Of a stretch of 43,319 bases of DNA, positions 2,402 to 20,169 are shown piece after piece. The notes under the pieces were generated by a model. The model had not been told where the DNA came from, did no database searches, and saw nothing but the letters and a program-made list of their open reading frames with translations. The position numbers and the translations under genes are program-made. Numbering within the stretch: position 1 is the stretch's first letter; every line of letters begins with the position of its first letter. The stretch lies in sequence record PX907400.1; one strand, 5' to 3'. This DNA comes from a phage.

Positions 2402-2883
2402 AAGATATTGTGATTTTCGATTTAGACGGGACATTGGCGGACGGTACACATCGTTTACACCTGCTGCCGAAAGATAACTACAACGAAACATGGGCGTGGA
2501 AACCATTTAACATGGCGTGCAAAGATGATGAACCAATTAGAGATAACATCGAGCTGTGTAACGCCCTTAATCGCCGCTATGCCGTTATTATTTTAACGGG
2601 TCGCAGTGATGACGCAGAAAAAGAAACAAGAATGTGGCTGCAGCGCCACCGCGTCGAATTTTATCAGTTAATCATGCGCAGCAAACACGACAACAGAAAA
2701 GACATCGTAATTAAGGAAGAGGTGCTACGTGCTATCGGGTTAGAAAGAATCTTGTGCGCGTTCGACGATTCGCCTGCGGTGATTAAACATTTCCGCAGCT
2801 TAGGAATCACGACACACGCGGTTACGGAATACGGCTGCAACGGTACTTCTACACACTTAAAATCACACGGGAGCGATAAATAA
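2398..2883 (+). CDS. HAD-family phosphatase resembling the T4 Pnk 3'-phosphatase domain
   Basis: N-terminal DLDGTL (DxDxT) motif, TGRS and KEE motifs; ATGA overlap with the upstream gene. Confidence 0.65.
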   Translation: MKDIVIFDLDGTLADGTHRLHLLPKDNYNETWAWKPFNMACKDDEPIRDNIELCNALNRRYAVIILTGRSDDAEKETRMWLQRHRVEFYQLIMRSKHDNRKDIVIKEEVLRAIGLERILCAFDDSPAVIKHFRSLGITTHAVTEYGCNGTSTHLKSHGSDK

Positions 2884-3437
2884 TGGCTAAGGTAATCATC
2901 CTTAACGGACCTGCGGGATGCGGCAAAGATACGCTCGCTAGGGCGCTGGTAGAAATGGGTTTTGCGAAAGGAACCACCAGCTTCAAGAATCCAATGTTCA
3001 ATATCGCTCTTGCGGCATTAGGGCCAGATGCGTATCACGAGTTCCTCGACGGCTACGACGACCGGGCACGTAAAGAAAAGCCAGAAGGTTTCCTTAATGG
3101 GTTGTCTCGTCGTCAGTTCATGATTGCTATCTCTGAACAATTCATTAAACCGGTCCTCGGCAGCGATTATTTCGGTAAGTATCTCGCTGAAAACTTGCCC
3201 GACGGCGACGAAGTTTTTATAGTGTCCGACGGCGGGTTTGCCAGTGAAGTAGCCCCTATCGTCACCGCGGGTCATGATGTAAGAATCGTTCGCTTGCACC
3301 GAGAAGGCTATACGTTTGACGGGGATAGCCGGGGATATCTGTACGATATTGGTGGTGTTGAAGATTGTGATGCGTACATCATACCGGGGGACGTTAAATC
3401 TAACGTGATAGACATTGCTTTAAAATTAGGTTTGTAA
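2883..3437 (+). CDS. P-loop kinase, dNMP kinase-like (T4 gp1-like); a polynucleotide kinase role is not excluded
   Basis: Walker A GPAGCGKDT; overall resemblance to T4 gp1; start overlaps the upstream stop (TAATG). Confidence 0.65.
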   Translation: MAKVIILNGPAGCGKDTLARALVEMGFAKGTTSFKNPMFNIALAALGPDAYHEFLDGYDDRARKEKPEGFLNGLSRRQFMIAISEQFIKPVLGSDYFGKYLAENLPDGDEVFIVSDGGFASEVAPIVTAGHDVRIVRLHREGYTFDGDSRGYLYDIGGVEDCDAYIIPGDVKSNVIDIALKLGL

Positions 3438-3440
3438 GAA

Positions 3441-3467
3441 AAAGGCCCCTCTCGGGGCCTTAGTTTT
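3441..3467. terminator. bidirectional rho-independent terminator between convergent genes
   Basis: AGGCCCC-TCTC-GGGGCCT stem-loop flanked by T-runs on both strands. Confidence 0.6.
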
Positions 3468-4632
3468 ATGCGTAGGTGATACGCTGGATAACAATAGACG
3501 ACTGATACTGATTGCCAGTAGCCTGGCCTTCGATGGACTGAGTGATTGACTCAGGCCCGCCAATCTCAGGTGTAACCGCGGTAAGTTCTGCACGTTTCAA
3601 GCTGAAAGACATAGCCCCGTTTACCCCCGCCAGAATAGAGTTAATCTCTACCTGCTGCTCGTTGATAAACTTCTGAATCATAGCCATGTCGTACAGCTTA
3701 CCGGAGATGGAGAAGGTGTTAGCCGCGCGGCTACGCTCCACAAACGCCACGTTAGTGTTGCCGAGTTCGAACTGTGCGGACGCGCTGTTGTCGTTGGTGA
3801 TGGTCAGGCTGTCGCAACGCAACGGCGTAGAACCGTCGAACACAGAAACATCGACCGAGGAGAACGGCTCGTCACCAAACGTAACAGAGGAGAAATCAGA
3901 ACCAGACGGCTGCGTGGTGAGAATCTCCTGACTGCGACCGATGAACGGGAAGCTGCCAGTTACCATAGCGTTAACAGCCTGTTCGATGGTAAAACCAGAA
4001 ACTTCCACGCCTTTGGTTAGTGTGTACGCGTCAGTCCCGCCGCACTGGCCTTTGTACCAGGTGAGAATAGAGAACGTCTTGCACTGGCTTCCCGTTTCCA
4101 GTTTATCCCCTGTCTTAGCGGCGGTAGTTACTGTCTCTGTGGTCAGGGTATGCTGGATACCCGCCCCGGTCACTACCAGTGCCTCTACTGCAGTTACGAT
4201 AAACGGTTTTGCGTTGTCACCGGTTAAGTCGGTAAACGCAATCAGGTCGCCCACTTCAACGCCGTCAGAAATAAAGCTACCTTCGGCACGGGTAAAGGTC
4301 TTGCCGGCAGGCGCGACGGTAATTGATAGCCTGGTCAGAGAACTACCGGATTGCCATGTAGAGCCTAAAGCACCCGCCAGCCAGTCGTCCTGGCTTTTCG
4401 AGCTAAGCTCAATAGCGTATTCTCCGCTAACCTGCTTGTTACCGGTGCGGATTGACGTAGTTTCACGGCTGCCGTCCAGTTCGTTGGAGGTCAGCGTGTC
4501 GCGAGTAATAGCAGGAACGCCACCTGTGTTACGCAACGGCGACCAGACAGGGTTGTCTGGTGTTACGCCCGGGACAGTCTCCGCCACATAGAATTGCGCG
4601 GTAGTCGCGCCCTTAAAAGGAGTTGTAGCCAT
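3466..4632 (-). CDS. major tail protein (tail tube), putative
   Basis: Position after neck genes and before the tail chaperones; ATG 4632 with AAGAGG Shine-Dalgarno (track gives GTG at 4638). Confidence 0.55.
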   Translation of the reverse strand: MATTPFKGATTAQFYVAETVPGVTPDNPVWSPLRNTGGVPAITRDTLTSNELDGSRETTSIRTGNKQVSGEYAIELSSKSQDDWLAGALGSTWQSGSSLTRLSITVAPAGKTFTRAEGSFISDGVEVGDLIAFTDLTGDNAKPFIVTAVEALVVTGAGIQHTLTTETVTTAAKTGDKLETGSQCKTFSILTWYKGQCGGTDAYTLTKGVEVSGFTIEQAVNAMVTGSFPFIGRSQEILTTQPSGSDFSSVTFGDEPFSSVDVSVFDGSTPLRCDSLTITNDNSASAQFELGNTNVAFVERSRAANTFSISGKLYDMAMIQKFINEQQVEINSILAGVNGAMSFSLKRAELTAVTPEIGGPESITQSIEGQATGNQYQSSIVIQRITYA

Positions 4633-4634
4633 AT

Positions 4635-5051
4635 TCACAGCCTCTTGGTGAATGCAATAAAGTTAATTGACAATGGTCGTTTGGCCCATCCGTTTTCTAC
4701 AATCAGCGGCCCCAGGCTAACCGATTGAACCTCGGCGCAGATGTCGTTACGAGAAAATGACTTACCTGCTTTGAATGCCGTGTTAAGTAAGTCTGCCATT
4801 TTATTGATTGGCGCGCTACCTTTCACCGATGCGTAGTTAATGTCGACCTGATAAACACCCGCGCGTTGTTCCGTGAAGAACAAATCTGCTTGCTCGGTAT
4901 CCGCCAGTAACATGTAACTTGCCAGATATGGCGTATCGGTTGACGTCGGCGCGTCGATGTTTTCAAGCGCGACATTGATGCCGTTGGCGGTTCCGAAGGC
5001 TACCAGCGGAACATCGAACGCTTTTGTTAAGTCCTCAAAGTAGCCCATCAT
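4635..5051 (-). CDS. tail completion/terminator-like protein, putative
   Basis: 138 aa ORF in the neck region, overlapping its neighbours. Confidence 0.4.
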   Translation of the reverse strand: MMGYFEDLTKAFDVPLVAFGTANGINVALENIDAPTSTDTPYLASYMLLADTEQADLFFTEQRAGVYQVDINYASVKGSAPINKMADLLNTAFKAGKSFSRNDICAEVQSVSLGPLIVENGWAKRPLSINFIAFTKRL

Positions 5052-5443
5052 TTCACCTTGTTGGCTTCTTCGTTAATGAGTTGCTGGAAGCGGGACACAT
5101 TAGTCCTGACAACCCCGGCGGGGGCCTGTTGCGACCAGCCATACTCCAGCCGTTGTGCATACGGCAGATTATTTGTCAGCGTGAACTCGCGCCAGTCTGT
5201 AGCTTTAAGCACGAAACTTGTAGCGTTTCCGGTTGCCGTGTTTCCTGATTTATCCGTAGCGTCTGTAATTCCGGAAGCGGGAGTGCCGCCAGACGCCATC
5301 CAGTTCATACGAAAGCGACCTGTATCTACCGGACTTGCCTTTATGATAGCGGAAAACAGTTTGATAGACACCTGACGCATCACCTTCTCGGGGTTCTTCT
5401 TCGCCTTTTCCACGAACTTAGAGACATCAAGCGCGAAACTCAT
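5048..5443 (-). CDS. HK97 gp10-like head-tail joining protein, putative
   Basis: PVDTGRFR motif recalled from the gp10 family; position in the neck module. Confidence 0.45.
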   Translation of the reverse strand: MSFALDVSKFVEKAKKNPEKVMRQVSIKLFSAIIKASPVDTGRFRMNWMASGGTPASGITDATDKSGNTATGNATSFVLKATDWREFTLTNNLPYAQRLEYGWSQQAPAGVVRTNVSRFQQLINEEANKVK

Positions 5444-5799
5444 TTTCTCACCTGAATAAAATACGCCACGACATCATCGTTAACCATCTTCTTCTCGATA
5501 GCTACGACAGACCATTGCTCGCCGCCGAATTGTACCTTGTCTTCCATTTTTGGCACGACACTGCAATCCGCTTTAACAACCATGTCTCCCGCCTGAATGG
5601 TTGTGCCGTTAACCAAGCCCGAGTTAACCGGAACGGGTACGGCTTTCAGCGGCAGCACTTCATCATCTGACCAGATGTATTCGCCGAGAACTTCATCCCA
5701 CACTTTCGAGCCAGCGCGAACCAGAGATACCGTGCTGCCGAATTTGGCTAGCAGGCGTGTACCCACGCCCTGCATACGTTTACTAAAGGCGGTGCTCAT
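5440..5799 (-). CDS. head-tail connector protein, putative
   Basis: ATG 5799 with GGAGG Shine-Dalgarno (the track ORF extends to 5853 without one). Confidence 0.4.
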   Translation of the reverse strand: MSTAFSKRMQGVGTRLLAKFGSTVSLVRAGSKVWDEVLGEYIWSDDEVLPLKAVPVPVNSGLVNGTTIQAGDMVVKADCSVVPKMEDKVQFGGEQWSVVAIEKKMVNDDVVAYFIQVRK

Positions 5800-6413
5800 T
5801 ACGCGGCCTCCAGTCTCGAGATAACCAGTAATGTCGAAGGTGCTGTACCCCATGCGGTCACTGTTGCGGCCTGCGGATATACGCCGCCGAAGTTTGTCCC
5901 AGCGCTGTCTCGCATAATCTGAACGTCAAATGTTTGTCCGGAGGTTGGGTTAATAACTACACGGGATTCAATAGGGATGGTAGTTTCCGCGCTAACCAGT
6001 TTCGTAGCTGCCGGCGAGCCGTACTGAGCGCCGTTTACCAGAATGCGTGACGACAAGATAGACGTGCCGCTGGCTCCGGTTCTCCCAGCCTGTAGCTTAA
6101 TGCGAACGGCATAGTTGCCCGCGGTATTGAAAGTTACCAGACCCGCGGCATTAATCATGACAGGGTCAGAGGCACTACCCTGCGCTGCACCGAAGGTTAG
6201 TTGCAACGCGGTATCGACCGCGGACGGAGCCTGAACGACAGTAGATGCCGCACGTAGCACCTCAACCTCTTTCGCGCCAGGGTTGGCATAAATAGGCGAG
6301 TCAGCCATTTTAGTGAGAACACCGCGTAACTTCTCAGGGGTGATTAGCCCGGTTGTGTTATCCGGCAATTCAGACCCGATTAGCGTAAATATCTCTGTTT
6401 TAGTCTTCGCCAT
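5799..6413 (-). CDS. hypothetical virion protein
   Basis: 204 aa ORF in the late operon. Confidence 0.4.
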   Translation of the reverse strand: MAKTKTEIFTLIGSELPDNTTGLITPEKLRGVLTKMADSPIYANPGAKEVEVLRAASTVVQAPSAVDTALQLTFGAAQGSASDPVMINAAGLVTFNTAGNYAVRIKLQAGRTGASGTSILSSRILVNGAQYGSPAATKLVSAETTIPIESRVVINPTSGQTFDVQIMRDSAGTNFGGVYPQAATVTAWGTAPSTLLVISRLEAA

Positions 6414-6415
6414 TT

Positions 6416-6928
6416 TTAACCCCGGTACACGTTAAACGAGAAGCCATTGTTAAGGCCTCCGCAAAGAAGCGGGCGCAATGCATCATCGGCTGCGGTGATT
6501 GATGTAGTAGCGCCAGAACTGCCGTTGTTGAAATAGGTGACGGTTACTGCGCCCTCTACGCGCTCAGTCTGTACTGAACGCCAGTCCGAGTTGGCACGCA
6601 CCTCTGTGCCTGCGCCGTATGTTACCGCGGCGATTACCTGTGCGAGAATTACCTGCTTAGGGATTACATTGTTCGCCACAGGGAAGCCGTTCAGAGTCAC
6701 CCCTGTGCGCGGGTACGCCAGCGACTGCTCTGCTGACACACGGCGACCGCACATCTGAGGTTCAGACAGGCCGACGTATGTAGCACCATTTCGCAGGGCC
6801 ACCTCTGCGGCGGTATCGTCGACAGGTAACTCAAGACCATAATTAGCCGCTAACGTGCGGGCGTCAGCCAGGCTAATGTAACTGTCGGCATTAGGGACGA
6901 TTTCACCCGTTTCCACGATTAGCGGCAT
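6416..6928 (-). CDS. hypothetical virion protein (head-tail adaptor region)
   Basis: 170 aa ORF, GAGGAA Shine-Dalgarno. Confidence 0.4.
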   Translation of the reverse strand: MPLIVETGEIVPNADSYISLADARTLAANYGLELPVDDTAAEVALRNGATYVGLSEPQMCGRRVSAEQSLAYPRTGVTLNGFPVANNVIPKQVILAQVIAAVTYGAGTEVRANSDWRSVQTERVEGAVTVTYFNNGSSGATTSITAADDALRPLLCGGLNNGFSFNVYRG

Positions 6929-6931
6929 AAA

Positions 6932-7111
6932 TTATTCCTCAGACTTACGGCGACGACGCTTAGTGCCACCGCCGTTGTTGTGCGCTTCTTCGTTGTCCGG
7001 TTGGGTCGCAACCAGTTCATCCGCTTCTACAACACCGCGCACGGGTATCACCTGACCATCAACCATATCAACGTGGGTGTACTTTTCGCGGATTACATAA
7101 TTATCTGCCAT
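6932..7111 (-). CDS. small basic protein (59 aa)
   Basis: ATG 7111 with AAGGAAAGG Shine-Dalgarno; C-terminal GGGTKRRRRK; below the track length cutoff. Confidence 0.35.
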   Translation of the reverse strand: MADNYVIREKYTHVDMVDGQVIPVRGVVEADELVATQPDNEEAHNNGGGTKRRRRKSEE

Positions 7112-7147
7112 GACCTTTCCTTATTACGGCCCCGAAGGGCCGCTGTA

Positions 7148-7498
7148 TTAAGACACAGTTGCTACAGTGCTGCTGGAGATAATATTACCATACACATCGT
7201 GAACAACCACTTTATACGTGCCGGAATCGGTAGTAGCGAGCGAAGTTTTCTCGTAGGTGTCGGCGGTAGCGCCAGGGATAGCGTTGTTATCTTTGTACCA
7301 CTGGTATGTGTACGGGGCCAGACCGCCGGTTACGGCTACAGTAAGGGTCATCGTCCGCCCCGTAGACTTGGTAGTGGTAGCGGCAAGTGCGGTAGAAAAA
7401 GATGCGGGCGAGATATTCGCCATATCGATTTCAACCTGACCATCGGCAGGAGAATCATCAGAAACACCAGTAATACGACGTTTGATTACATCAACCAT
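7148..7498 (-). CDS. Ig-like domain protein (capsid decoration-type)
   Basis: TYQWYKDN...DSGTYKVVV resembles an I-set Ig-like domain. Confidence 0.5.
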   Translation of the reverse strand: MVDVIKRRITGVSDDSPADGQVEIDMANISPASFSTALAATTTKSTGRTMTLTVAVTGGLAPYTYQWYKDNNAIPGATADTYEKTSLATTDSGTYKVVVHDVYGNIISSSTVATVS

Positions 7499-7510
7499 TT
7501 TTAAGCTCCT

Positions 7511-7816
7511 TTAGCTTACAGTTCCTGCATTTTTAAGCGCAGTCAACAGATCTGCTACGGTAGTGTGCAGCGCGGTTACATCAGTTCGAAGTTTGTTGTA
7601 CTCGGCTACAAGGGCATCGAACTCGGCCTTAGTCAGGTCCGCAGCGGACTGCGACCCGGCGGCAGCGGCAGCGGTAATGGCCGCGGGGGCGGCTACAGTA
7701 GCTGACTTTTTAACCCCACCAACTACGCTGGTAGTAGCCGGCGTTACTGGGATGTCAAAGTCGCCGAAGTCGACATTCTGAAGGCTGCGAGGCAAGCCTT
7801 TTCCGGTCTTAGCCAT
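7511..7816 (-). CDS. hypothetical head protein
   Basis: 101 aa Ala-rich ORF after the capsid gene, AAGAGG Shine-Dalgarno. Confidence 0.45.
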   Translation of the reverse strand: MAKTGKGLPRSLQNVDFGDFDIPVTPATTSVVGGVKKSATVAAPAAITAAAAAGSQSAADLTKAEFDALVAEYNKLRTDVTALHTTVADLLTALKNAGTVS

Positions 7817-7840
7817 AATTTACCTCTTAGTAAATGAAAA

Positions 7841-7858
7841 GAGGGACCGAAGTCCCTC
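7841..7858 (-). terminator. stem-loop/terminator downstream of the major capsid gene
   Basis: GAGGGAC-CGAA-GTCCCTC hairpin followed by a T-rich run on the minus strand. Confidence 0.4.
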
Positions 7859-7875
7859 TCGATTATATCTTAACC

Positions 7876-8925
7876 TTAAGCCCCGACACCAGTTACCAGG
7901 AAGGCAATCGGTACATGCTTACGGTCAACCACACGGTTCCAGTTGGAGGCGTTCGCCAGGTCCTGCCAGGAAGCGGAGCGGGCGACAGTCTCGGTGCCGT
8001 TGCCGGTGATTACCGCGCTGGTGAAGCTGTAGCCCAGTGGGTGCAGCAACCAGGTCTTACGGGTCCACAGGGTTTCAACGCCGCCACCATTGCCGCGGGA
8101 CGCTTCACGTTCGTATTCCAGCGGGTTGGACGGGTTGCCTTCACCATAACCGATGGCACCGTTGCCAAAGATGATGGAGATGAACTTACGGCTTGGACCA
8201 GTACCAACTACAGTCATGCTGTCGTCAACAATCACACGGTAGCCCTGGTAGCTAGCAAACATGGTGTTGTTGTCAGCGTCGCGAATGAAGTCGATAAGCT
8301 GCTGCTTACGCGCCTGTGCATAAACGAAGCTGTGCATCGCGATAGCGCCCAGCACCTCACCACCGTTACCCATCAGAGCATCGCCCATAGTCTGAGTGGC
8401 GTCGATGAACGCACCTGCGTCGAAGCCCAGAGTAGCGGACACGTCGATAACCATATCGTTCTGCGTATGGTAAGCATCGGTAGCAGCTACGTTGTCGTTG
8501 TACAGACCGAGCGCGGTAGCAATCAGACGGCGTTGTGCCTGACGCTGCCAGAAGTTATCCAGACGGGACGCTACGGATTGCAGAGGGTTCTGGCTGGTCA
8601 GTTCGACAGTCAGGTCCGCCTGACCGAAACCTTCGTTCAGGTACGCAACGCGGGCCATCATCTCGCCAGTCTGCACATTACGCGGGGTAGCGATGTCCTG
8701 ATAAACATCGTTCGAGTAGTTAGGCTCGATAGAAGTATCAATCGCTTTCCAGAAAGGAATGTTGGCGACGTTGGACGGACCGCGAGCAATCTCGGCAGCG
8801 TACGGAGTCGGGGTCAGAATACCAGACTGGAAGAACGCGGTTTTTTCTACCGGGTCCTCGGTCATATAAGACGCCAGGACCGGGATGTTGCCAGTTACGA
8901 TATCGCCGATAGTGGTAATTGCCAT
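7876..8925 (-). CDS. major capsid protein
   Basis: 349 aa ORF directly after the scaffold gene, followed by a hairpin; called from position and size. Confidence 0.65.
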   Translation of the reverse strand: MAITTIGDIVTGNIPVLASYMTEDPVEKTAFFQSGILTPTPYAAEIARGPSNVANIPFWKAIDTSIEPNYSNDVYQDIATPRNVQTGEMMARVAYLNEGFGQADLTVELTSQNPLQSVASRLDNFWQRQAQRRLIATALGLYNDNVAATDAYHTQNDMVIDVSATLGFDAGAFIDATQTMGDALMGNGGEVLGAIAMHSFVYAQARKQQLIDFIRDADNNTMFASYQGYRVIVDDSMTVVGTGPSRKFISIIFGNGAIGYGEGNPSNPLEYEREASRGNGGGVETLWTRKTWLLHPLGYSFTSAVITGNGTETVARSASWQDLANASNWNRVVDRKHVPIAFLVTGVGA

Positions 8926-8927
8926 TA

Positions 8928-9683
8928 TTATTTCCTCAGGGCTTTAAGTTGCCGTTCAAATTCGGCAGGGTTCGATTTATACAGGGCTAAACGCTCTGCT
9001 TCACTCATGTCTTTAAACGCTGGTGCGGCCCCGCCGCCTTTGCTACCGGAAGCCCCGCCGCCGGAAGCTGCATTTGCTTTAATCAAATGCGAAAACGCTT
9101 TATGTTCGCGCAGGTATTTGCGGAACTGTTCCGGGTCAGTTGTGACTACGTTGCCATCCGCGCCGACAAACTTAGTAACCACATCATCACCTTCAAACTC
9201 AGTCTTAACGAACGGCGCGAGAATGTCTACTGCTTCCGGGGTAATGAAGTCACCCGCGAAAGAACCTAACACCGCTTTGCGTTCGCTGCCGAGGATGCGC
9301 TCTGCCATTCTGGAGATGCGACCATCTTTCTCGGCTAACACCGGGTCATACTGGCTACGAATCGTCTTTTCGAACTCGTCCATCTTACCGGCGGCTTTCA
9401 GGGCCTCCTGGTGCGCACGCTGCCGCTCTTCTTCGGCCTCTTTTGCTTTACGAGCGGCTTCTTTCTTCTCGTTCAGCAATGCTTCCTGGTTAGCCTTAAG
9501 CCCGGCGACTTCTTTCTCAATCAGCGCCTGCACTTCTTCGGCTGTGTACATTTTAGGTGCGTCACCGCCGCCTGATTTATCTTCTGCTCCAGCTTCTTCC
9601 TGGAACGGATAACGTAAAAAACGATTCATAGTCAGTATGTCCCCTGGACGTTGGAACCCGGGCCACCCGGATTTACATGTCAA
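8928..9683 (-). CDS. scaffolding protein
   Basis: Charged, helix-rich protein upstream of the capsid gene; track start is TTG at 9683, alternative ATG at 9629. Confidence 0.5.
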   Translation of the reverse strand: MTCKSGWPGFQRPGDILTMNRFLRYPFQEEAGAEDKSGGGDAPKMYTAEEVQALIEKEVAGLKANQEALLNEKKEAARKAKEAEEERQRAHQEALKAAGKMDEFEKTIRSQYDPVLAEKDGRISRMAERILGSERKAVLGSFAGDFITPEAVDILAPFVKTEFEGDDVVTKFVGADGNVVTTDPEQFRKYLREHKAFSHLIKANAASGGGASGSKGGGAAPAFKDMSEAERLALYKSNPAEFERQLKALRK

Positions 9684-9711
9684 GAATAAATTATTCCAAC
9701 ATGCAAGGCAA

Positions 9712-9975
9712 CTATTCCAGAATATTCCTCACATAATCCTGCAACTGGAATACTTTCAGGCGCAGTTGCCGTGCGCATTCGGCGTTCCGGACGTCGGTAG
9801 CTAAATCCTCGTCAGCGTCGCTACTTGGCGGCGCCAGTTTGCACGGCGGCTGCATCATCGTCGTATCCGGGGATGGAATTGGCGTTTGCGACGGCGCGGG
9901 ACTTGAGCTGCACGCGCTCAGGGTCAAAAGCGCACACGCTGCGACCAGGCGTTTTAATGTACTTAACGACTTCAC
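9712..9975 (-). CDS. o-spanin (Rz1-like lipoprotein)
   Basis: Signal peptide with lipobox LSAC, Pro-rich mature part; overlaps the Rz ORF in another frame; GTG start with GAGGTGA Shine-Dalgarno. Confidence 0.65.
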   Translation of the reverse strand: MKSLSTLKRLVAACALLTLSACSSSPAPSQTPIPSPDTTMMQPPCKLAPPSSDADEDLATDVRNAECARQLRLKVFQLQDYVRNILE

Positions 9976-10207
9976 GTGTGATCACCTCTGATTTCGTCTT
10001 GCCTTCGTTGTCAGCGGCTGCGGCCTTTGATTCATCCTGCTGCTGCCGTTGTGTTTTCTTCGCTAACTCAGCCTGTGCTTTCTGCTGTTGCTGCGAAACG
10101 AGATTCGCCCGGCCTTCGTTCCAGCCGCTGTGATACTGGTAGATGCCGTGTGCGTAAGCCAGGATGATAAAACATGCCCCCGCTACGACAGTTGCTTTAA
10201 GATTCAT
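9821..10207 (-). CDS. i-spanin (Rz-like)
   Basis: N-terminal transmembrane segment then Q/A/E/K-rich coiled coil; an Rz1-like ORF overlaps its 3' half. Confidence 0.65.
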   Translation of the reverse strand: MNLKATVVAGACFIILAYAHGIYQYHSGWNEGRANLVSQQQQKAQAELAKKTQRQQQDESKAAAADNEGKTKSEVITREVVKYIKTPGRSVCAFDPERVQLKSRAVANANSIPGYDDDAAAVQTGAAK

Positions 10208-10227
10208 GTTTCCCCTTTCTCGATAAG

Positions 10228-10424
10228 TAAAGCCCCGCCTTAAAGCGGGGCGCTAGTCCTTATCATTTAAACATAGAAACGGCGTAATCTCAGTAAACCA
10301 GTTACTTTTTACACAAGCAATAGAGTAAGGCCCTTCCGAACGCGTCAGCGCAACTACACTCGGACTTAACGTCCGGCTCCGTTACCTGCCGCGCCGCGGT
10401 CGCTTGTTCATACTTCACAAGCTC
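10228..10424 (-). ncRNA. putative sRNA or structured leader (copy A of a duplicated element)
   Basis: Conserved promoter then ~110-nt block shared with 21655..21752; GCTTGT...ACAAGC hairpin and a covarying hairpin; ends at GCCCCGC...GCGGGGC stem. Confidence 0.3.
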
Positions 10425-10430
10425 AGGTGG

Positions 10431-10459
10431 AGCTTAGCACATTTTTGGTGAAAAGTCAA
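10431..10459 (-). promoter_or_regulatory. sigma70-like promoter (-35 TTGACT, 17 nt, extended -10 TGcTAAGCT)
   Basis: Identical -35 and -10 hexamers and spacing at 21759..21787; palindrome AACTATTCGAATAGTT overlaps the -35. Confidence 0.45.
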
Positions 10460-10521
10460 CTATTCGAATAGTTTATTCCAACATTTACAATTGAGTGGAA
10501 TAACTGGAATAATCACAGGCA

Positions 10522-10544
10522 CTAAAAAGCCCCTTTCGGGGCTT
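10522..10544 (-). terminator. rho-independent terminator after the Ig-like gene
   Basis: AAGCCCC-GAAA-GGGGCTT stem followed by TTTTT on the minus strand. Confidence 0.55.
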
Positions 10545-10548
10545 CGGT

Positions 10549-11010
10549 TTATTCTGGCTTAGTAACCTTCGCCGCTTTACTGACGGCCTCTACCCCATCG
10601 GCATCGGTGACTTTAACGAAGTATTCACCGACAGCATTAACCGTCAGAGACAAAGCCTCTTCTGGGGCGTTTACCACTTCCTTGCCGTCTTTGTACCAGG
10701 TCAGTACACACGGCGCTTTACCTGCCTTAACTTCGACGGTGATGGTGGCGCTACCGTCGACCAGCTCGGTGTCTTTCGGTTGCACCGAGAAATACACGTC
10801 ACCTGCATCCGCCAGATACGGAATTTCATAAAGCATGCCCGCCGCGGGTAACGCAATACCGGTTTTATCTGCAAACGGCATATCGTCTTCGGGTGTACCG
10901 AGTACACTTTCATCATCAATAAACACCACGTTCTCTCCAGAGCCAGACACGCGGGCGTACTGGACTACGCGACGTGACGGTACATCAGTTACTTTGAAAA
11001 AGCCCATCAT
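10549..11010 (-). CDS. Ig-like domain protein
   Basis: CVLTWYKDGKEV...GEYFVKV resembles an I-set Ig-like domain. Confidence 0.5.
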   Translation of the reverse strand: MMGFFKVTDVPSRRVVQYARVSGSGENVVFIDDESVLGTPEDDMPFADKTGIALPAAGMLYEIPYLADAGDVYFSVQPKDTELVDGSATITVEVKAGKAPCVLTWYKDGKEVVNAPEEALSLTVNAVGEYFVKVTDADGVEAVSKAAKVTKPE

Positions 11011-12086
11011 TAATCCCCTTTCAGATAATCAGCAACACGTTTATCGAGTTCCGCCATCTGCTTAAGCGTGAGCGGATTCCCGAAACCATCTACAGATATT
11101 ACGCGAAACTCTTCCGGCGGTATACCGCTGTTACGGAAAATCTTACCTCGCACCGGGCCGAGCGCCTGGTCCTGAAACCACGCCGGTTGTTGTTTAAGGA
11201 ACTCGTAGTAAGTGGTATCCGCGCTTACTTGCGTTCCGCCATCAGCACCTTTGGCAGCACGTTTTGCGCCTGCATCAAGGAAGTCGAACTCTGAGCTAAT
11301 TACAGGTGCTGTGGTACTTCGACAATTCGGATGGGCTGGCGGCGTAGGGCCTTTACCGATTTCCCATGTCATGCCATCTCTGGCCTTGCATATCGTGCTG
11401 GTACGGCTGTCCAGTGTTGACACCCATTCGTATTTCTCGATGATGTCGCTGTTCTGCCGATAAGTCTCGTTGCGGGCTTCGTTAGATACGTGTGAAAGTG
11501 CGGTGCGGATTACGGTAGCGGCATTGCGCTCTGAGATGTCCGCCAGCCCGCCGGAGCCAACAACGCTCTTGATAATCTGCCGTGTTGTCTGGCCCTGTAC
11601 AAACCCCATCTTAACGCCAGTTACTAGGCGCGACACTTCTGTTTCACCCCAGCCTTCCATAAGTTTCGTGAAATCTGCTGGCTTGTCGCTTAAAGCCAGC
11701 GGTTGGAACACAGCGGCGGACCACACCTGCTCAGCGGTAGGGGTAACAAATTCCGTGTTAACGTTAGCCGCGAGTGTCTTCACACCCCACTCGGCCTCGT
11801 ACGCCGCCAGTTCCTTAAGGTCTTCTGTCAGCTTCGTTTGCCAGTCACCGGTTAACCCGGTCAGTGCTTCTTCTAGGTCGCGTAACAATTTATTCAGACG
11901 TGCTGTGCTTCGCCCGTCGTCGCCGAACAACAACACCTGCCGTTTGATTTCATCGCGCATCTCCTGAATGAATGGTGCTAGGTCTTTCACCTCACCAGAT
12001 GCGGTGCGTTGCAGCCAAATCTGGTGACTGATTAATGATGTCAGTAAGCTCATAAATAAACCCTGTGGCGCTAAAGTTAATAGCAT
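11010..12086 (-). CDS. head morphogenesis protein (phage Mu F-like / SPP1 gp7-like)
   Basis: C-terminal STLDSRTSTICKARDGM...HPNCRST block typical of the Mu F family; follows the portal gene. Confidence 0.7.
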   Translation of the reverse strand: MLLTLAPQGLFMSLLTSLISHQIWLQRTASGEVKDLAPFIQEMRDEIKRQVLLFGDDGRSTARLNKLLRDLEEALTGLTGDWQTKLTEDLKELAAYEAEWGVKTLAANVNTEFVTPTAEQVWSAAVFQPLALSDKPADFTKLMEGWGETEVSRLVTGVKMGFVQGQTTRQIIKSVVGSGGLADISERNAATVIRTALSHVSNEARNETYRQNSDIIEKYEWVSTLDSRTSTICKARDGMTWEIGKGPTPPAHPNCRSTTAPVISSEFDFLDAGAKRAAKGADGGTQVSADTTYYEFLKQQPAWFQDQALGPVRGKIFRNSGIPPEEFRVISVDGFGNPLTLKQMAELDKRVADYLKGD

Positions 12087-12096
12087 ATTATAAGAA

Positions 12097-12112
12097 AGCC
12101 CCTTTCGGGGCT
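12097..12112 (-). terminator. stem-loop between the portal and head morphogenesis genes
   Basis: AGCCCC-GAAA-GGGGCT followed by TTTCTT on the minus strand. Confidence 0.35.
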
Positions 12113-12122
12113 ACAGGTGGAC

Positions 12123-13604
12123 TTATTGCTGGGTGGCATCCTGCTGTTGCGCCGACTGCGGAATCTCGCCAGTTACCTGAGTAACAGCGCCTAACGGCAC
12201 AGGTGCATCCTCAATAGCCGTTGTAATCTCCTCGTCAGTCCAGTCAGTTACCCCAGCCTTACGCAACGCGGCGTAGTAAGCAGTTGCCGGTAGTAAACCG
12301 GCATTAATGTCTGCCATCCACTGCGCACGGTCCTGAGCGGTCATTGGTTGCAGGAAGAATTCCATATTCAGCTTGAACTCAATTTCCGTTCCTTCGCGTA
12401 GACCCAGCATCGCAGCCACCCAACGCAACGCTTCGGTGTACGCCATGCTTACGTTACGCGCAATGGTTGCCATTACGGACGTATCGGCAGCACGTTGCAG
12501 GCGAGCGGATTCGGCGGTGATTTGCTGCGTAGGCGTGATAAGCTGTGCACCAATCTGGATTGCCTGATTCTCTTTATCCAACATGTTCTGTTTGGCGAGG
12601 TTATTCTCTCCCGCCTGGACCAGAAACGCGTTGCCGCCGTAGCCGATATTGTGGCCAGAACGTGAACCCATACGTACGCCGTGGGGGTTGGCCTCTTTCC
12701 ATTGCACCATGCTCATGTTCTCACCGGGGGCGATGAACAGAGTGGGCTGGCCTACAACGAAGCTAGATTCCTCATTGTCTGCGCTGTTGCGAAAATGCCC
12801 GATATTAAGCTCAGCTAACGGCAGCAAAGGCGCGTCATCAACCGTCGCGTCGTTGTTGCTGGCCCCGATGAACGTGAACGGGATTTTACCGCGCAACTGT
12901 TCGCCCAGTTCCGGGAAGATTTCTATTACTTCGTCTTGCGCGCCGCCTTCCGCATCGAATCGGTATATGCGCTGACGGTAGCGCCCGTCAATCAAGTCGA
13001 GAACGCGGTATTGTTCCCCAGACTTGGTTTCAAACTCGGCTCCAGGTTCTGAATATTCCCATACCTCACGCAGCACTACCATCGTAACGCGGTTAACAGA
13101 GCCTACGCGAGTGAGTCGCCAGTTGATGATGTTCTCTGCGGTATAGAATGCGATGACCGGGTTTAATAATCCGGCGTTCTGTTCGGCTGCCGTCGCTGCC
13201 GCTGTCTCCGGCGCATCCACCAGTAAACCGCCACGACCCACCGAGTCAATCTCCATCAGCGTATCCTGCGCGTGCTGCCACAGGCCAACACCCGAGCCAT
13301 CGGCATTGCGTAACAGGTATTCCAGTTCACGTGGAATAATCTGCTCCGGGTCTTTTCGCATTACCGAGCCAACCATACCCGACAGGGTACGCTTGGTGAA
13401 ATTGTAGCAGATAGCGCCGTTCTCGTATTCTTCCTGGCGCTGGACTGCATAAGTTGGGTCCGGCTCGTTCTTCCCGACGTTTCGCAGATAGCGGATAAGG
13501 TCACCCTCCAGTGCGTGGCGCACCTTCTGCCATTTATCGAAGTGATGCAGCCATTCCCGGTGTTTTGTCTTAACACCCTGATTCTGACCGTTCATAGTTA
13601 ACAT
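12123..13604 (-). CDS. portal protein
   Basis: 493 aa ORF immediately after the large terminase; AAGAGGA Shine-Dalgarno; called from position and size. Confidence 0.65.
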   Translation of the reverse strand: MLTMNGQNQGVKTKHREWLHHFDKWQKVRHALEGDLIRYLRNVGKNEPDPTYAVQRQEEYENGAICYNFTKRTLSGMVGSVMRKDPEQIIPRELEYLLRNADGSGVGLWQHAQDTLMEIDSVGRGGLLVDAPETAAATAAEQNAGLLNPVIAFYTAENIINWRLTRVGSVNRVTMVVLREVWEYSEPGAEFETKSGEQYRVLDLIDGRYRQRIYRFDAEGGAQDEVIEIFPELGEQLRGKIPFTFIGASNNDATVDDAPLLPLAELNIGHFRNSADNEESSFVVGQPTLFIAPGENMSMVQWKEANPHGVRMGSRSGHNIGYGGNAFLVQAGENNLAKQNMLDKENQAIQIGAQLITPTQQITAESARLQRAADTSVMATIARNVSMAYTEALRWVAAMLGLREGTEIEFKLNMEFFLQPMTAQDRAQWMADINAGLLPATAYYAALRKAGVTDWTDEEITTAIEDAPVPLGAVTQVTGEIPQSAQQQDATQQ

Positions 13605-13616
13605 TGAATAATCCTC

Positions 13617-14867
13617 TTAAAGTGCGAAAGTCACAGGGATGTTGATTACTGGTTTAACCACCGGCATCTCGTAAACTACAGGATAGCCAAGCGCATCTGC
13701 CATATGGTCGATAATGCCGTCTTTAGCTGGCTCTCCGTTGTCGTCGTACGCCTGTTGCTCCAGCGTCTTGGCTATCTCCGGGCATAAGTGGTCGTTAACC
13801 CACAGCTTACCTTTTTCCAGCGCGGTATTCACGGCTAAAACACGGTCTTTAACTGGTGGGTTGGCGGATTTAGCCCGTACATCGAAACCGGCCTGCTGGA
13901 GTAGGGCGATGTCAGAGATGGACGCCGAGTTGGTCTTGCGGTTCTTGCCGCTGGCGTCCGGGTACACGACGATGCGGTGGCCTTGCGACTTCCACTTCTC
14001 AGTAATTACGCGCACGGTATCCGGTGTATCGAACAGGCCTTTCAGTTCTGCTACCGCGTGCCAGCCGTCTTTACGTTGCACATACACGGCGCTTGCGTTC
14101 TTCGTAACGTTGAAGTCCTGCCCGATGTACAACGTGTCGCCCGGTTGAATTACCTCTTTGCTGCGGTGCTTACGGCGGTCATATGCGTAATACACGCTGC
14201 CGGAGGTAAGGTTGACGAACTCACCATTCAGATACGCGTTAATCAACTGCGCCGGATAAGTCTCGGTCAGCGAACTAATGTAGTCAGGTGGCAGGAATCG
14301 CGCGTTCTCGTGTGTAGAAGCCTGCACCATCGAGTAACTCGGCGTCGGGTTCTCTTTGAACTTGGCGTAGACGAACTTGAACCCTTCCGGTGTCGTGGTG
14401 ACAGAGATGTGGTTAATTACACCAGGAATAACAAGACGCATACGGGCGACAATTTTGTTCCACGCCAGCTCAGCTTTCTCACGGCTCAATACATCAAGCT
14501 CATCCACAACCGCAGCAGCGATTTTGAAGCCGACTATCGAGCCTGGGTTATCCATAGAACGGCAGATAACTGTACCGAGCACCGTCTTACCGCGAGTAAC
14601 CACGACTTCTTTGTCGCCAGATTTAACCAGCACATCGAGTCCGAGCAGGTTAGCGGCTTCCTCAAATGTCGGGTAGAAGATGTCACGGATAGCCGGGTAT
14701 GTCGGACCGAAGTAACCCAGGCGCGTACCTGGATGCTTGAGCATAAACGTAAGCAGGTCAAGGCAGCCAACAAATGTCTTTCCGCTGCCGAAGCCGCCGA
14801 CATATGCCTTATATTTGTTATCACAATTCAGGAACAGCGCCTGCGGTGCGGATAGCTGAATACTCAT
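13617..14867 (-). CDS. terminase large subunit
   Basis: Walker A GGFGSGKT near the N-terminus; start overlaps the small subunit stop. Confidence 0.8.
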   Translation of the reverse strand: MSIQLSAPQALFLNCDNKYKAYVGGFGSGKTFVGCLDLLTFMLKHPGTRLGYFGPTYPAIRDIFYPTFEEAANLLGLDVLVKSGDKEVVVTRGKTVLGTVICRSMDNPGSIVGFKIAAAVVDELDVLSREKAELAWNKIVARMRLVIPGVINHISVTTTPEGFKFVYAKFKENPTPSYSMVQASTHENARFLPPDYISSLTETYPAQLINAYLNGEFVNLTSGSVYYAYDRRKHRSKEVIQPGDTLYIGQDFNVTKNASAVYVQRKDGWHAVAELKGLFDTPDTVRVITEKWKSQGHRIVVYPDASGKNRKTNSASISDIALLQQAGFDVRAKSANPPVKDRVLAVNTALEKGKLWVNDHLCPEIAKTLEQQAYDDNGEPAKDGIIDHMADALGYPVVYEMPVVKPVINIPVTFAL

Positions 14868-15409
14868 TCCTCTACCTCACCCATATTCGTTGTTACAATT
14901 TTACCTACAGGCTCTGCAACACTAAAAATAATCTCGGTCGGTGCCGTTTCTTCGGTGGATTCAACTGGTTTCTCTTTGCCGAGGCCCAGCTTAGCGGCAG
15001 CAAATGTAGCCGAGATTCCCGCGGCCCCTGTCTCAGTGAAGTATGCCTCTTCCAGTGCCTGTGCGGTCTCCCAGGCTTCTGCGAATGCTGGAATCTCACG
15101 CAGCCATAGCTTAATAATAGGGATAGTGACGCCGATGTGTAAGGCAAAGCGGGCCAGTGACGGCGGTTTATCCTGAATCAGCGGGCGTTCGTCACCCTTA
15201 GACGTAGGCACGAGTTCCCACGACGTGCGGTCGAAGAACTCGATTAACGCGTCGCAATAGTCCGGGTCCCACAACGCTGCGGAATTACGGGACGATTGAT
15301 AAAGGCTCTGTTTACCGCGCGGTCGTTTACGGCGGCGGTTTGCGCTAACAGCTTCTTCATGTGCAGCTTGCACCACCTCTGGCGATGGCTGCTTGAGTTT
15401 CAGCTTCAT
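14864..15409 (-). CDS. terminase small subunit, putative
   Basis: Directly upstream of and overlapping the large terminase; ATG 15409 has GAGGGG Shine-Dalgarno (track ORF extends to 15448). Confidence 0.5.
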   Translation of the reverse strand: MKLKLKQPSPEVVQAAHEEAVSANRRRKRPRGKQSLYQSSRNSAALWDPDYCDALIEFFDRTSWELVPTSKGDERPLIQDKPPSLARFALHIGVTIPIIKLWLREIPAFAEAWETAQALEEAYFTETGAAGISATFAAAKLGLGKEKPVESTEETAPTEIIFSVAEPVGKIVTTNMGEVEE

Positions 15410-15507
15410 AGAATCCCCTCGCATATGCGTCTGACCATCAGAGCGCATCAGACGCGCCCTACGCGTCTAAAGGGATTATATAAGGGGATTGGGCGGGATG
15501 TACAGAA

Positions 15508-15528
15508 AAGCCCTCGGTAGAGGGCTTG
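15508..15528 (-). terminator. rho-independent terminator ending the minus-strand early/lysis transcript
   Basis: AAGCCCTC-TACC-GAGGGCTT stem followed by TTTTCT. Confidence 0.45.
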
Positions 15529-15628
15529 TATCAGTTGTATAGGCCGTGGCGTGGTACTCTTTTACCGTCGCCGCCGTAATGGTCGTTAGCTACGGGAATG
15601 GCCCAGGCGTTAGGGATGATTAGTAGTC

Positions 15629-15787
15629 TCATTTGAAGAAACCATCCTTGACAAGCTGACGGTATAGTTTAGCTGCGTAACGCTCTGCCTGGCCTTTGCG
15701 CCGAAATATTTTCCCATTAACTGAATACTTATTTAACTCTGGCTCGTACCAAACTTGGTTGTCGATGAACTCCAGAATACTAATCAT
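15629..15787 (-). CDS. hypothetical small protein (52 aa)
   Basis: ATG 15787 overlaps the upstream stop; below the track cutoff. Confidence 0.3.
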   Translation of the reverse strand: MISILEFIDNQVWYEPELNKYSVNGKIFRRKGQAERYAAKLYRQLVKDGFFK

Positions 15788-16044
15788 TCCCCACTCCCCT
15801 CTTTAGCAATACGTTGCTCTGTTTTAGTAATACCCCGGCGCGTGAATAACACCGGGCTTGTCTTAACGTGCGTCATCAGACGATTGTTATAAATTACATG
15901 GCGTTCACAATCGACGTCTTTGCTGTACTTCGCAATCGTCATTTCGTTGATGCCGGTTTGTCGGCATGTCTCCGCCATCGTGCCAAATTCTTTAATCAGG
16001 TTCGGAATGCTGGTAATCATCCTAAGAAATTCCTCGTTGTCCAC
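15784..16044 (-). CDS. HTH DNA-binding protein, putative
   Basis: 86 aa with an HTH-like segment (TMAETCRQTGINEMTIAKYS). Confidence 0.4.
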   Translation of the reverse strand: MDNEEFLRMITSIPNLIKEFGTMAETCRQTGINEMTIAKYSKDVDCERHVIYNNRLMTHVKTSPVLFTRRGITKTEQRIAKEGSGE

Positions 16045-16211
16045 ATCGCATTCGGATATTTATTATCACGGTCCTGTACCACAGCAATCATGTTTCCGCG
16101 TTGCACAAGGCAGAAGTGCCGTTGCTGCTCACCATTGTACCGGCGCCAGATTGCTTCTTCGATTGCCGCATTAATGTCACTGAACACTGTCTCTACCCCA
16201 CATAAACCCAA
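16017..16211 (-). CDS. hypothetical protein (start uncertain)
   Basis: Track ORF with TTG start; a 31-aa hydrophobic ORF (ATG 16268) overlaps in another frame. Confidence 0.3.
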   Translation of the reverse strand: MGLCGVETVFSDINAAIEEAIWRRYNGEQQRHFCLVQRGNMIAVVQDRDNKYPNAMWTTRNFLG

Positions 16212-16273
16212 TCAATACGCCGATAAAATAACCTGCTGCGACAAGGCCAATAACCACCTCAAGACTCATACTC

Positions 16274-16456
16274 TCACCCCACTATCTCATCACCGAGCCA
16301 CGCCGTTTCTCGTATATCGTCGACCACACAAGCGGCGTGCTCACGGCTAATTGCAAAAATGTAGAAGCTGAACTTCTTCCCGTCGGCGTCGATGTGGTTA
16401 ACCGAGTATGGTTTCCACAGGACGCCATCGATAACTACGGGTTCAGGCGCTTTCAT
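16274..16456 (-). CDS. hypothetical protein
   Basis: 60 aa ORF in the early gene array. Confidence 0.4.
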   Translation of the reverse strand: MKAPEPVVIDGVLWKPYSVNHIDADGKKFSFYIFAISREHAACVVDDIRETAWLGDEIVG

Positions 16457-16691
16457 ACGCTTTACCGCATTTTAAGCATGTGACTCGATGCTCCCCATCA
16501 ACTAAATGCAGGCGGTAATCATGCTCGCAGGCGTTCATCTTTTCCTCTTCTCCTCTCAACAACATGAGAAGAACCTTAAATGCGGCTAACTGGTACTCAC
16601 CGTTAATCGACAGTTGCCCGCCTAGCGTCTGTTTCTCCGACTCAAGCACCAGAATACGGCGCTCGAGCGATGCGATTGTGATTTTAGGCAT
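16443..16691 (-). CDS. zinc-ribbon protein, putative
   Basis: C-terminal CEH...C.KCG; ATG 16691 chosen over the longer track ORF. Confidence 0.4.
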   Translation of the reverse strand: MPKITIASLERRILVLESEKQTLGGQLSINGEYQLAAFKVLLMLLRGEEEKMNACEHDYRLHLVDGEHRVTCLKCGKAYESA

Positions 16692-16929
16692 GACGCTGTA
16701 CCCCGCATTTAATACACTGCCTGCACATATCCTTCGGATTGTAGTCGAACTCATGTTCGCACTTGTTCAGGTTGAAGCGGTTAATCAGTTCACGGCGCGT
16801 CTCATAAAGCGACTCAACCATTTGCTCAGCTACAGCGATTTTAGTATTCAGGACGTGCATCACATGGCTAATGTCTGCGCCGCCGTTAACGGCCTCAACC
16901 ATCATCTTTTCGTATTCACGGTCAGTCAT
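16684..16929 (-). CDS. zinc-ribbon protein, putative
   Basis: C-terminal CEH...CRQCIKCG. Confidence 0.45.
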   Translation of the reverse strand: MTDREYEKMMVEAVNGGADISHVMHVLNTKIAVAEQMVESLYETRRELINRFNLNKCEHEFDYNPKDMCRQCIKCGVQRHA

Positions 16930-17083
16930 TTTTACACTCTCCCCACATGCGATTGAGATACTTGTTCTTGTCCGGGCCGGGGAAACTGTTACGTTTCATC
17001 AGTTCCTCGCGTGTCGGGAACGGGGTGTGACTGACTTTACGGCCTACTCGTAATGGCTGGCTTACTTGACCTTGTTCGCTCAT
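16922..17083 (-). CDS. hypothetical small protein (53 aa)
   Basis: ATGA overlap with the upstream gene; below the track cutoff. Confidence 0.35.
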   Translation of the reverse strand: MSEQGQVSQPLRVGRKVSHTPFPTREELMKRNSFPGPDKNKYLNRMWGECKND

Positions 17084-17229
17084 TTCTTCTCTCCTGCATA
17101 AGCTTCTTTCAGTGTTTGCATCGCAGCGAACCAGAACGCGTCCGCTGGAATGCTGTTGCTCAGGTTACTAACGGCGATGCGTGCCATCAGTTGTGCGTCT
17201 TTGAATGCTTCGATGTCTGTGATTTTCAT
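17080..17229 (-). CDS. hypothetical small protein (49 aa)
   Basis: ATG 17229 abuts the upstream gene; stop overlaps the next ATG. Confidence 0.35.
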   Translation of the reverse strand: MKITDIEAFKDAQLMARIAVSNLSNSIPADAFWFAAMQTLKEAYAGEKK

Positions 17230-17426
17230 TAGTTATTCTCCAGTATTTCTAACGCTTTCACGAGGTAACGTTTACGTAAAACATCAGTCTGCGCGCTATT
17301 AGCCCTGCGTATGTAGCCCGCAGCAGCCTCCATCTGTAGTTTTTCCACCGAACCATCCCCTATAACTGATGCGATACATTTAACTTCGAGTTCTTCGGTT
17401 ATTTCTATCGTCGATACGTTGCCCAT
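17229..17426 (-). CDS. hypothetical protein
   Basis: 65 aa ORF, first gene after the promoter at 17461..17489. Confidence 0.45.
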   Translation of the reverse strand: MGNVSTIEITEELEVKCIASVIGDGSVEKLQMEAAAGYIRRANSAQTDVLRKRYLVKALEILENN

Positions 17427-17460
17427 TTCTCTCTACTCCGTTCTCGTTGTCGATGGAGTA

Positions 17461-17489
17461 AATATAATAGGGTCTAAGGTAATAGTCAA
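17461..17489 (-). promoter_or_regulatory. sigma70-like promoter (-35 TTGACT, 17 nt, -10 TATATT)
   Basis: Hexamers at correct spacing; contains ATATAATAGGG also seen at 992..1004. Confidence 0.35.
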
Positions 17490-20162: not shown

Positions 20163-20169
20163 GTAAATT

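Follow-up and report, generated by a model that had tools for sequence, protein, structure and literature searches.

A predicted overlapping Rz/Rz1 spanin pair among the head genes of a Kagunavirus, apart from the holin and endolysin genes

Two overlapping open reading frames (ORFs) on the minus strand of the phage DNA of sequence record PX907400.1, between positions 9712 and 10207, very probably encode the two-component spanin of this phage, which would carry out the last step in the lysis of a Gram-negative host. The whole stretch of 43,319 nucleotides (nt) was analysed and is referred to as the window. An earlier note had identified the two ORFs as Rz and Rz1 and had placed them in the head module, between the head-morphogenesis and scaffold genes and away from holin and endolysin; both ORFs are present, their identification was borne out by PHROG matches and by the annotation of Escherichia phage K1G, and the coordinates agree with PHROG and Pfam matches in setting the pair about 7.4 kb from the holin and endolysin genes, with the refinement that a Hoc-like gene lies between head morphogenesis and the pair. 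In a search with a 2-kb query (positions 9000-11000), which matched 482 phage records, K1G was the best match with 97% identity over the full length, and by its sequence the window is a Kagunavirus (Guernseyvirinae). The pair comprises the following features, with lengths in amino acids (aa) or base pairs (bp).

9821..10207, minus strand: Rz-like i-spanin gene, ATG start, 128 aa (ORF list, phrog_2536, K1G gp06)
9712..9975, minus strand: Rz1-like o-spanin gene, GTG start, 87 aa (ORF list, PHROG, K1G gp07)
9821..9975, minus strand: 155-bp Rz/Rz1 overlap, with Rz1 in the +1 frame of Rz ('overlapped' architecture)
10212..10219, minus strand: Shine-Dalgarno-like GAAAGGGG, 4 nt upstream of the Rz ATG (read from sequence)
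9985..9988, minus strand: Shine-Dalgarno-like GAGG, 9 nt upstream of the Rz1 GTG, within Rz (read from sequence)

For the two-component spanin class, the definition given by Summer et al. 2007 and Kongari et al. 2018 was used. Over residues 1-128, Rz matched phrog_2536 ('Rz-like spanin') with E=4e-56. Its most hydrophobic window in a 17-residue Kyte-Doolittle profile covers residues 3-19 (mean 1.94), in agreement with the transmembrane segment proposed for it previously, and this N-terminal hydrophobic segment is kept in five genera. It is followed by a stretch rich in Q, A, K and E, and the part predicted to be periplasmic contains one cysteine, Cys92. A single-sequence AlphaFold2 model of Rz consists of one helix spanning residues 3-83, with predicted local distance difference test (pLDDT) values of 76-87 over the first 60 residues and a C-terminal half at low confidence, and supports a membrane anchor plus helical domain. 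The predicted topology of Rz is accordingly that of an i-spanin, with a single N-terminal transmembrane domain and a mainly helical periplasmic domain. The Shine-Dalgarno-like site of Rz is kept as GAAAGG(G/A)G in all Kagunavirus copies.

Rz1 matched phrog_5672 (E=4e-28) and phrog_1267 (E=3e-20). Its N-terminus reads MKSLSTLKRLVAACALLTLSAC/SSSPAPSQTPIPSPD..., with a basic n-region (K2, K8, R9), a hydrophobic h-region, the lipobox LSAC, Cys22 and Ser at +2, and 9 of its 87 residues are prolines, as in a Pro-rich linker; the sequence thus reads as the Pro-rich, out-of-frame predicted lipoprotein with lipobox LSAC that had been noted before. A lipoprotein signal, a lipobox cysteine predicted to be lipidated and a residue other than Asp at +2 together are the marks of an o-spanin. 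Additional cysteines stand at positions 45 and 67, so that both partners, through Rz Cys92 and Rz1 Cys45 and Cys67, possess predicted periplasmic cysteines for homotypic disulfides. With a stop codon only two codons before it and GAGG at a distance of 9 nt upstream, this GTG is the only workable start of Rz1; K1G uses the same one.

In an alignment of Rz1 proteins from five genera (Escherichia, Salmonella, Serratia and Klebsiella phages and a Dhillonvirus; 44-66% identity), the invariant residues include L19, C22, P44, C45 and C67, the P-C motif, D-x-D-x-D-L and a C-terminal L-R...V..LQ...R. Rz1 genes missed by the automated finder, which applied strict start-codon and charge rules, were identified by eye. 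Among Kagunavirus isolates the lipobox alternates between LSAC (Cys22), as in the present Rz1, and LASC (Cys23), as in many others, and it is kept in every isolate in which the o-spanin was found; across the five genera no o-spanin that was detected or read has lost it, the lipobox being either kept or shifted.

The gene arrangement is likewise that of a spanin pair, in which the o-spanin gene is embedded in, overlaps or immediately follows its partner: Rz1 starts 232 nt after the Rz ATG, and relatives have the same geometry, their overlaps measuring 125-173 bp. For 34 distinct ungapped Kagunavirus versions of the 496-nt locus, nucleotide diversity was calculated at each codon position. At positions 1, 2 and 3 it amounts to 0.048, 0.043 and 0.156 in the part that is Rz only, and to 0.048, 0.028 and 0.178 in the part that is Rz1 only (109 nt beyond the Rz stop). 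Outside the overlap, the third position is thus 3-6 times as diverse as positions 1 and 2 in both genes, and each frame is therefore under purifying selection where it stands alone. Inside the overlap the periodicity tracks the Rz frame, which fits an overlap that encodes an undemanding signal peptide and linker on the side of Rz1.

In the RefSeq record of K1G, gp06 and gp07 are both annotated as 'Rz-like spanin', gp07 with the remark 'overlapping gene' (YP_009168786/7), and the present proteins are 95% (Rz) and 98% (Rz1) identical to them. Kongari et al. (2018) describe a 'Jersey' i-spanin family and a matching o-spanin family of the overlapped class, with members including Jersey, SETP3, SE2, K1G, K1H, K1ind1-3, HK578, EP23, JL1, SO-1 and SSL-2009a; phage Jersey itself has a 155-bp overlap, and the o-spanin cysteines of the family are constant at 45 and 67 (PMC6139136). 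The present pair shares with this family the overlapped architecture, the 155-bp overlap, Cys45 and Cys67 and the same neighbours; nothing of substance differs, and only a few amino-acid substitutions separate it from K1G. Judged by these features and by the significant similarity to PHROGs 2536 and 5672/1267, the pair is a member of the 'Jersey' spanin family, of the overlapped class and distinct from the lambda family.

The genes around the pair and the remaining lysis genes are listed below.

11010-12086: Mu F-like head-morphogenesis gene, upstream neighbour of Rz/Rz1
10549-11010: Hoc-like decoration gene, upstream of Rz/Rz1
8928-9683: scaffold gene, downstream of Rz/Rz1
7876-8925: major head protein gene, downstream of the scaffold gene
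18358-18666, minus strand: holin (PHROG match; holins: phrog_2359, phrog_2508)
18093-18365, minus strand: second holin or antiholin (PHROG match; holins: phrog_2359, phrog_2508)
17609-18094, minus strand: lysozyme-type endolysin (phrog_7 and Pfam PF00959 Phage_lysozyme)

Rz and Rz1 are thus flanked by the Hoc-like and scaffold genes, and the holin, holin and endolysin genes (18666-17609) lie upstream on the same strand, all lysis genes being part of one leftward array. No spanin candidate was found beside the holin/endolysin cassette, where the ORFs downstream of the endolysin gene (17490-17612 and 17229-17426) have neither a family match nor a lipobox. A search of the whole window with a lipoprotein-signal filter for a second spanin, a u-spanin or another lipoprotein returned none, and of the ORFs in the window that pass this filter, Rz1 alone cannot be accounted for by a real gene in another frame. 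The other ORFs that passed were rejected as alternative-frame ORFs inside real genes; one of them, 39743-40024 on the minus strand, has no PHROG match and overlaps the frame of a minor tail protein.

For comparison, 80 related loci were taken from IMG/VR and the window proteins mapped onto them. The order portal, head morphogenesis, (Hoc-like), Rz, Rz1, scaffold, capsid was found in every Guernseyvirinae locus with enough flank, and in about 15 Dhillonvirus-like loci Rz/Rz1 directly follow head morphogenesis; in the annotated records of SE2, Tsm2, 37P2 and phage bob they likewise stand in the head block. In two distant members (L061 and L065; 36-56% identity, phrog_2536 plus phrog_5672) the order is instead holin, endolysin, Rz/Rz1, and this lysis-cassette position is the best contextual evidence here for a spanin role of the family. 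In all loci examined, i-spanin and o-spanin occur together and in the same overlapped geometry. The displaced position in Guernseyvirinae and Dhillonvirus-like phages, together with the ordinary cassettes in the distant members, points either to a relocation before the split or to a transfer of the cassette.

Three loci (L039, L040 and L048) combine a Hoc-like gene of Kagunavirus type (89-93% identity) and its intergenic element (94-95% at the nucleotide level) with spanins of Jerseyvirus type (Rz 66-77%, Rz1 60-64%), followed by scaffold and capsid proteins that are 91-94% identical. The spanin pair behaves as an exchangeable cassette; in a head module that is conserved for the rest, its genes diverge most and are the most mosaic.

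Annotation of the family is uneven. In Escherichia phage bob (L005, NC_073072.1, a Dhillonvirus) the i-spanin is unannotated, an Rz-like ORF of 119 aa being present at 2673-3032 where it overlaps the end of the head-morphogenesis gene, and the o-spanin ORF is labelled 'hypothetical protein'. Several Jerseyvirus records annotate just the last 47 residues of Rz1, for example SE2 gp37.

In function, the pair would be expected to work as the lambda spanins do. The transmembrane segment of Rz would anchor it in the inner membrane, with its mostly helical domain extending into the periplasm, while Rz1 would be lipid-modified at Cys22 and, as Ser at +2 predicts, sorted to the outer membrane. By analogy with lambda, the C-terminal parts of Rz and Rz1 would bind each other to form a complex that spans the periplasm, stabilised by homotypic disulfides through Rz Cys92 and Rz1 Cys45 and Cys67. 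The peptidoglycan mesh would keep this complex inactive until the wall has been removed by holin and endolysin, whereupon it would fuse inner and outer membranes. Because such a complex is passively restrained until the wall is removed, spanins would need only late expression, and because late expression suffices, their genes would tolerate a place away from the holin gene. Transcription of the pair presumably runs leftward, together with that of the morphogenesis genes. It would start at a conserved promoter some 250 nt upstream and pass a structured leader and a leaky terminator, or else reach the pair by read-through from a more distant upstream start.

Like lambda Rz/Rz1, the present pair consists of a predicted type-II inner-membrane protein and a predicted outer-membrane lipoprotein encoded in the +1 frame; in both phages, moreover, the o-spanin is Pro-rich and periplasmic cysteines are present. 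It differs in that lambda Rz1 is fully embedded in Rz, whereas the present Rz1 reaches beyond Rz, in that the mature o-spanin has 66 residues rather than 40 and possesses a conserved C-terminal part, and in that the pair does not adjoin holin and endolysin. The C-terminal part is helical in predictions for Jersey-family o-spanins (PMC6139136). The classic unlinked spanins are PseT.3 and PseT.2 of T4 (PMC6139136). The T4 o-spanin, at 83 aa, is similar in size and has a C-terminal helix by prediction; the T4 spanins belong to a different sequence family and their genes are separated, whereas the present ones overlap. The lysis genes of T4 are all scattered, while in the present phage holin, holin and endolysin stand together in a cassette and the spanins alone are displaced.

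The pair and its odd position in the head module are already known, as both genes are annotated in GenBank/RefSeq, the family is classified in the spanin survey, and the separation is in print. The announcement of Escherichia phage Schulenberg, a Guernseyvirinae-like siphophage, states that its spanins are genetically separate from holin and endolysin (PMC6763661); as described, this is the same separation in a different phage. In phage Golestan the spanins are ORF7/8 and the holins and endolysin ORF66-68 (PMC7203180), so that this paper shows the separation implicitly. Lysis genes need not be contiguous, and automated annotation should look for i-spanin/o-spanin pairs throughout a genome rather than just in the surroundings of the endolysin gene.

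Between the Hoc-like gene and Rz the following features were located.

10527..10544, both strands: bidirectional terminator-like hairpin directly after the Hoc-like gene (family D3); the minus strand reads AGCCCCGAAAGGGGCTTTTT
10431..10459, minus strand: candidate sigma-70 promoter TTGACT, 17 nt, TGc-TAAGCT (extended -10; read from sequence)
10318..10430, minus strand: structured RNA-like element, copy A, with a core of about 113 nt (repeat families D2 and D5; covariation)
10232..10251, minus strand: intrinsic-terminator-like hairpin GCCCCGC-TTTA-AGGCGGGGC then TTTACTTAT, ending 24 nt before the Rz ATG

Totals of the promoter and terminator scans were no higher than in shuffled sequences, and individual sites were trusted only if conserved or covarying across genomes. 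The simple promoter scan missed the candidate promoter, which matches at only 3 of 6 positions of the -10 hexamer. Among 39 distinct sequences of copy A and of a second copy, B, from IMG/VR, however, TAAGCT, the TG and the spacing of 17 nt do not vary, even though A and B have different upstream flanks, and the -35 hexamer is kept in all but one, which has CGACTT. Copy A extends as a repeat over 10318-10459, just upstream of the Rz-proximal hairpin, with a variable stretch between core and hairpin. The core recurs as copy B at 21787-21643 on the minus strand (85% identity), again preceded by the promoter-like site and with a hairpin of its own at 21572-21556. Copy B lies in a divergent control region and heads the leftward array to which the holin and endolysin genes belong; another promoter-like site follows it before the next gene. 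The two form paralogous units (10225-10460 and 21556-21790, both on the minus strand), each with promoter, core and downstream GC-rich hairpin.

In a 16-sequence alignment the core contains five pairs with compensatory changes, 97% of the cells being paired as compared to 32-47% with slid partners, and its covariation score lies above all 500 shuffles. Single-sequence folds are marginally better than shuffles (z-scores of -2.2 for copy A and -1.8 for copy B). No Rfam family matched the upstream element, either in a search with the whole window at gathering thresholds or in one with 10150-10600 at E<=10, and ARAGORN reported no tRNA or tmRNA. A pattern scan found the element in many Kagunavirus contigs, often twice per contig. 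By its conservation and covariation the upstream element is real, and it is probably an RNA.

Among the terminator-like sites in a scan of 3300-22500, the hairpin at 10251-10232 is listed first and is the richest in G-C pairs, with 7 in a stem of 8 pairs; this stem shows compensatory variants, CCCTGC/GCAGGG in one relative (L087) and CCCGGC/GCCGGG in Jerseyvirus SE2. Repeat and terminator scans confirmed that the pair lies directly downstream of copy A and a terminator, as the earlier note had it. The intergenic stretch is 93-99% identical in nearly all loci of Kagunavirus type (83% in L033), including three loci with Rz at 66-77% protein identity, and Jerseyvirus SE2 has a related upstream arrangement.

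These features raise the possibility, suggested in the earlier note and in our view rather doubtful, that the spanins are under their own control, with the promoter-RNA-terminator leader gating transcription of Rz/Rz1, scaffold and capsid apart from holin and endolysin, in a manner likened to lambda pR'-6S RNA-tR' or to the cis-acting put RNAs of HK022. In lambda, too, lysis and head genes are neighbours on the late transcript, and a promoter, the short terminated 6S RNA and a terminator precede them. The conserved TTGACT-17-TGnTAAGCT site, the covarying core and the T-tract hairpin before Rz would suit such a leader, as would the persistence of the intergenic stretch beside divergent spanins and its counterpart in SE2; the hairpin after the Hoc-like gene, which on the minus strand (10544-10527) reads as a GC hairpin followed by TTTTT and which the scan called on the plus strand, would insulate the unit from upstream transcription. 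Against separate control, however, all lysis genes stand on one strand in one leftward array that is punctuated by other terminator-like hairpins (12112-12097 and 7860-7839), and copy B heads the part with holin and endolysin, which argues that control is shared, or that the element is a small RNA gene in its own right with no relation to the spanins; the promoter-like site between copy B and the next gene is as expected of an independent RNA gene. Relatives in Serratia and Klebsiella show no terminator hairpin before Rz in the alignment, and in Dhillonvirus there is no intergenic space, as the head-morphogenesis gene ends within the Rz ORF. Lambda spanins need be present only when the endolysin acts, and physical separation therefore does not imply special control. 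In the time-course transcriptome of Kagunavirus K1B4, moreover, the lysozyme and the flanking head genes fall into one temporal class, the lysozyme, Mu F-like and capsid genes all being 'middle' (PMC12645636); that study does not report the spanins individually.

As to the role of the RNA, it might act in cis as a leader, by processive antitermination or attenuation as with HK022 put or lambda 6S/tR', or serve as a phage small RNA, and in either form would coordinate the expression of both separated halves of lysis and of the capsid genes in Guernseyvirinae; we regard this as speculative and unlikely. The conserved RNA-like element is the only feature described here that might repay experimental work.

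Several observations weigh against the assignment as spanins. BLASTP gave no alignment of Rz to lambda Rz, and neither the Pfam Rz family (PF03245 Phage_lysis) nor an Rz1 family was matched at E<=0.01, the sole Pfam match being DUF2514 with 16.6 bits against a cut-off of 26. Rz1 scored 19.2 bits (E=0.001) against the P2 LysC model (NF038368 P2_Rz1), below its cut-off of 27 bits, and this likeness is no more than a distant resemblance. For the putative coiled coil of Rz the single-sequence model, with its low-confidence C-terminal half, offers just one long predicted helix, and a strong-looking terminator stands 24 nt upstream of the Rz ATG, which bears on the route of transcription. We know of no member of the Jersey spanin family that has been tested genetically.

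An alternative would be a membrane protein and a lipoprotein that are not a lysis device and have some other role fitting the head module, for instance a superinfection-exclusion lipoprotein (T5 Llp/Cor-like) with a membrane partner, or a membrane-associated assembly factor. The location among head genes, 7.4 kb from holin and endolysin, and the lack of similarity at family thresholds to the experimentally studied spanin families of lambda, P2 and T4 speak for this alternative, which we nonetheless judge highly improbable. The same two families occur in textbook holin-endolysin-Rz/Rz1 order in L061 and L065, i-spanin and o-spanin are never found apart, the conserved periplasmic cysteines agree with the spanin rule and unlinked spanins are already known in T4 (PMC6139136), and, by the search of the window, the phage would have no outer-membrane disruption gene without this pair. 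That only Rz is a gene and 'Rz1' a chance open frame in GC-rich sequence with a fortuitous lipobox is hardly credible: overlapping ORFs of such length are common in the window (several antisense or alternative-frame ORFs of 40-100 aa lie nearby) and the start codon is GTG, but beyond the Rz stop the diversity sits at the third position of the Rz1 frame, the Rz1 ORF with its lipobox Cys, PPC motif and second Cys is invariant across five genera, the lipobox survives a one-residue shift, both PHROG matches are significant, and no other ORF in the window passed the lipoprotein filter without a real gene in another frame to explain it.

Further observations concern the surroundings of the spanin genes. 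The gap between the Hoc-like gene and Rz ranges from about 345 to about 1100 nt among close relatives (L008, L011-L014, L016, L017, L026, L028, L029, L036, L040, L048 and others), with the conserved element always beside Rz; the stretch from the Hoc-like gene to this element is a hot spot for insertions. In K1G and relatives, homing endonuclease genes are found near this gap.

The bidirectional hairpin after the Hoc-like gene is one of three near-identical copies of AAAAGGCCCC-loop-GGGGCCTT with T-runs on both sides (3440-3467, 10524-10551 and 34229-34256; family D3), which sit at module boundaries.

An exact 12-mer, ATGTTGGAATAA, is present at 10484-10473 and 9702-9691 on the minus strand, flanking the promoter-RNA-terminator-Rz-Rz1 block. 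As a general late-promoter motif it was rejected: with up to two mismatches (<=2) it shows no enrichment in the window, with 4 occurrences against 3.07 expected, and its presence at both sites in Kagunavirus loci only, not in Jerseyvirus, also counts against this. The two copies may be a protein-binding site or a recombination scar. Several GGAATA/TATTCC half-sites surround both copies, and among them an inverted pair, TTATTCCA...TGGAATAA, lies upstream of the promoter.

Elsewhere in the window, strong sigma-70-like promoters of the form TTGACA-N17-TATTAT with a palindrome AATAGT-N-CTATT (family D1, inverted pairs I1/I2) were found on the plus strand at 21449-21478, 24984-25013, 25028-25057, 27724-27753 and 31430-31459, and as inverted copies at 978-1024 and 20120-20166; they are probably a set of early-gene promoters/operators. 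The copy A promoter has a related palindrome, CTATTCGAATAG, which overlaps its -35 region.

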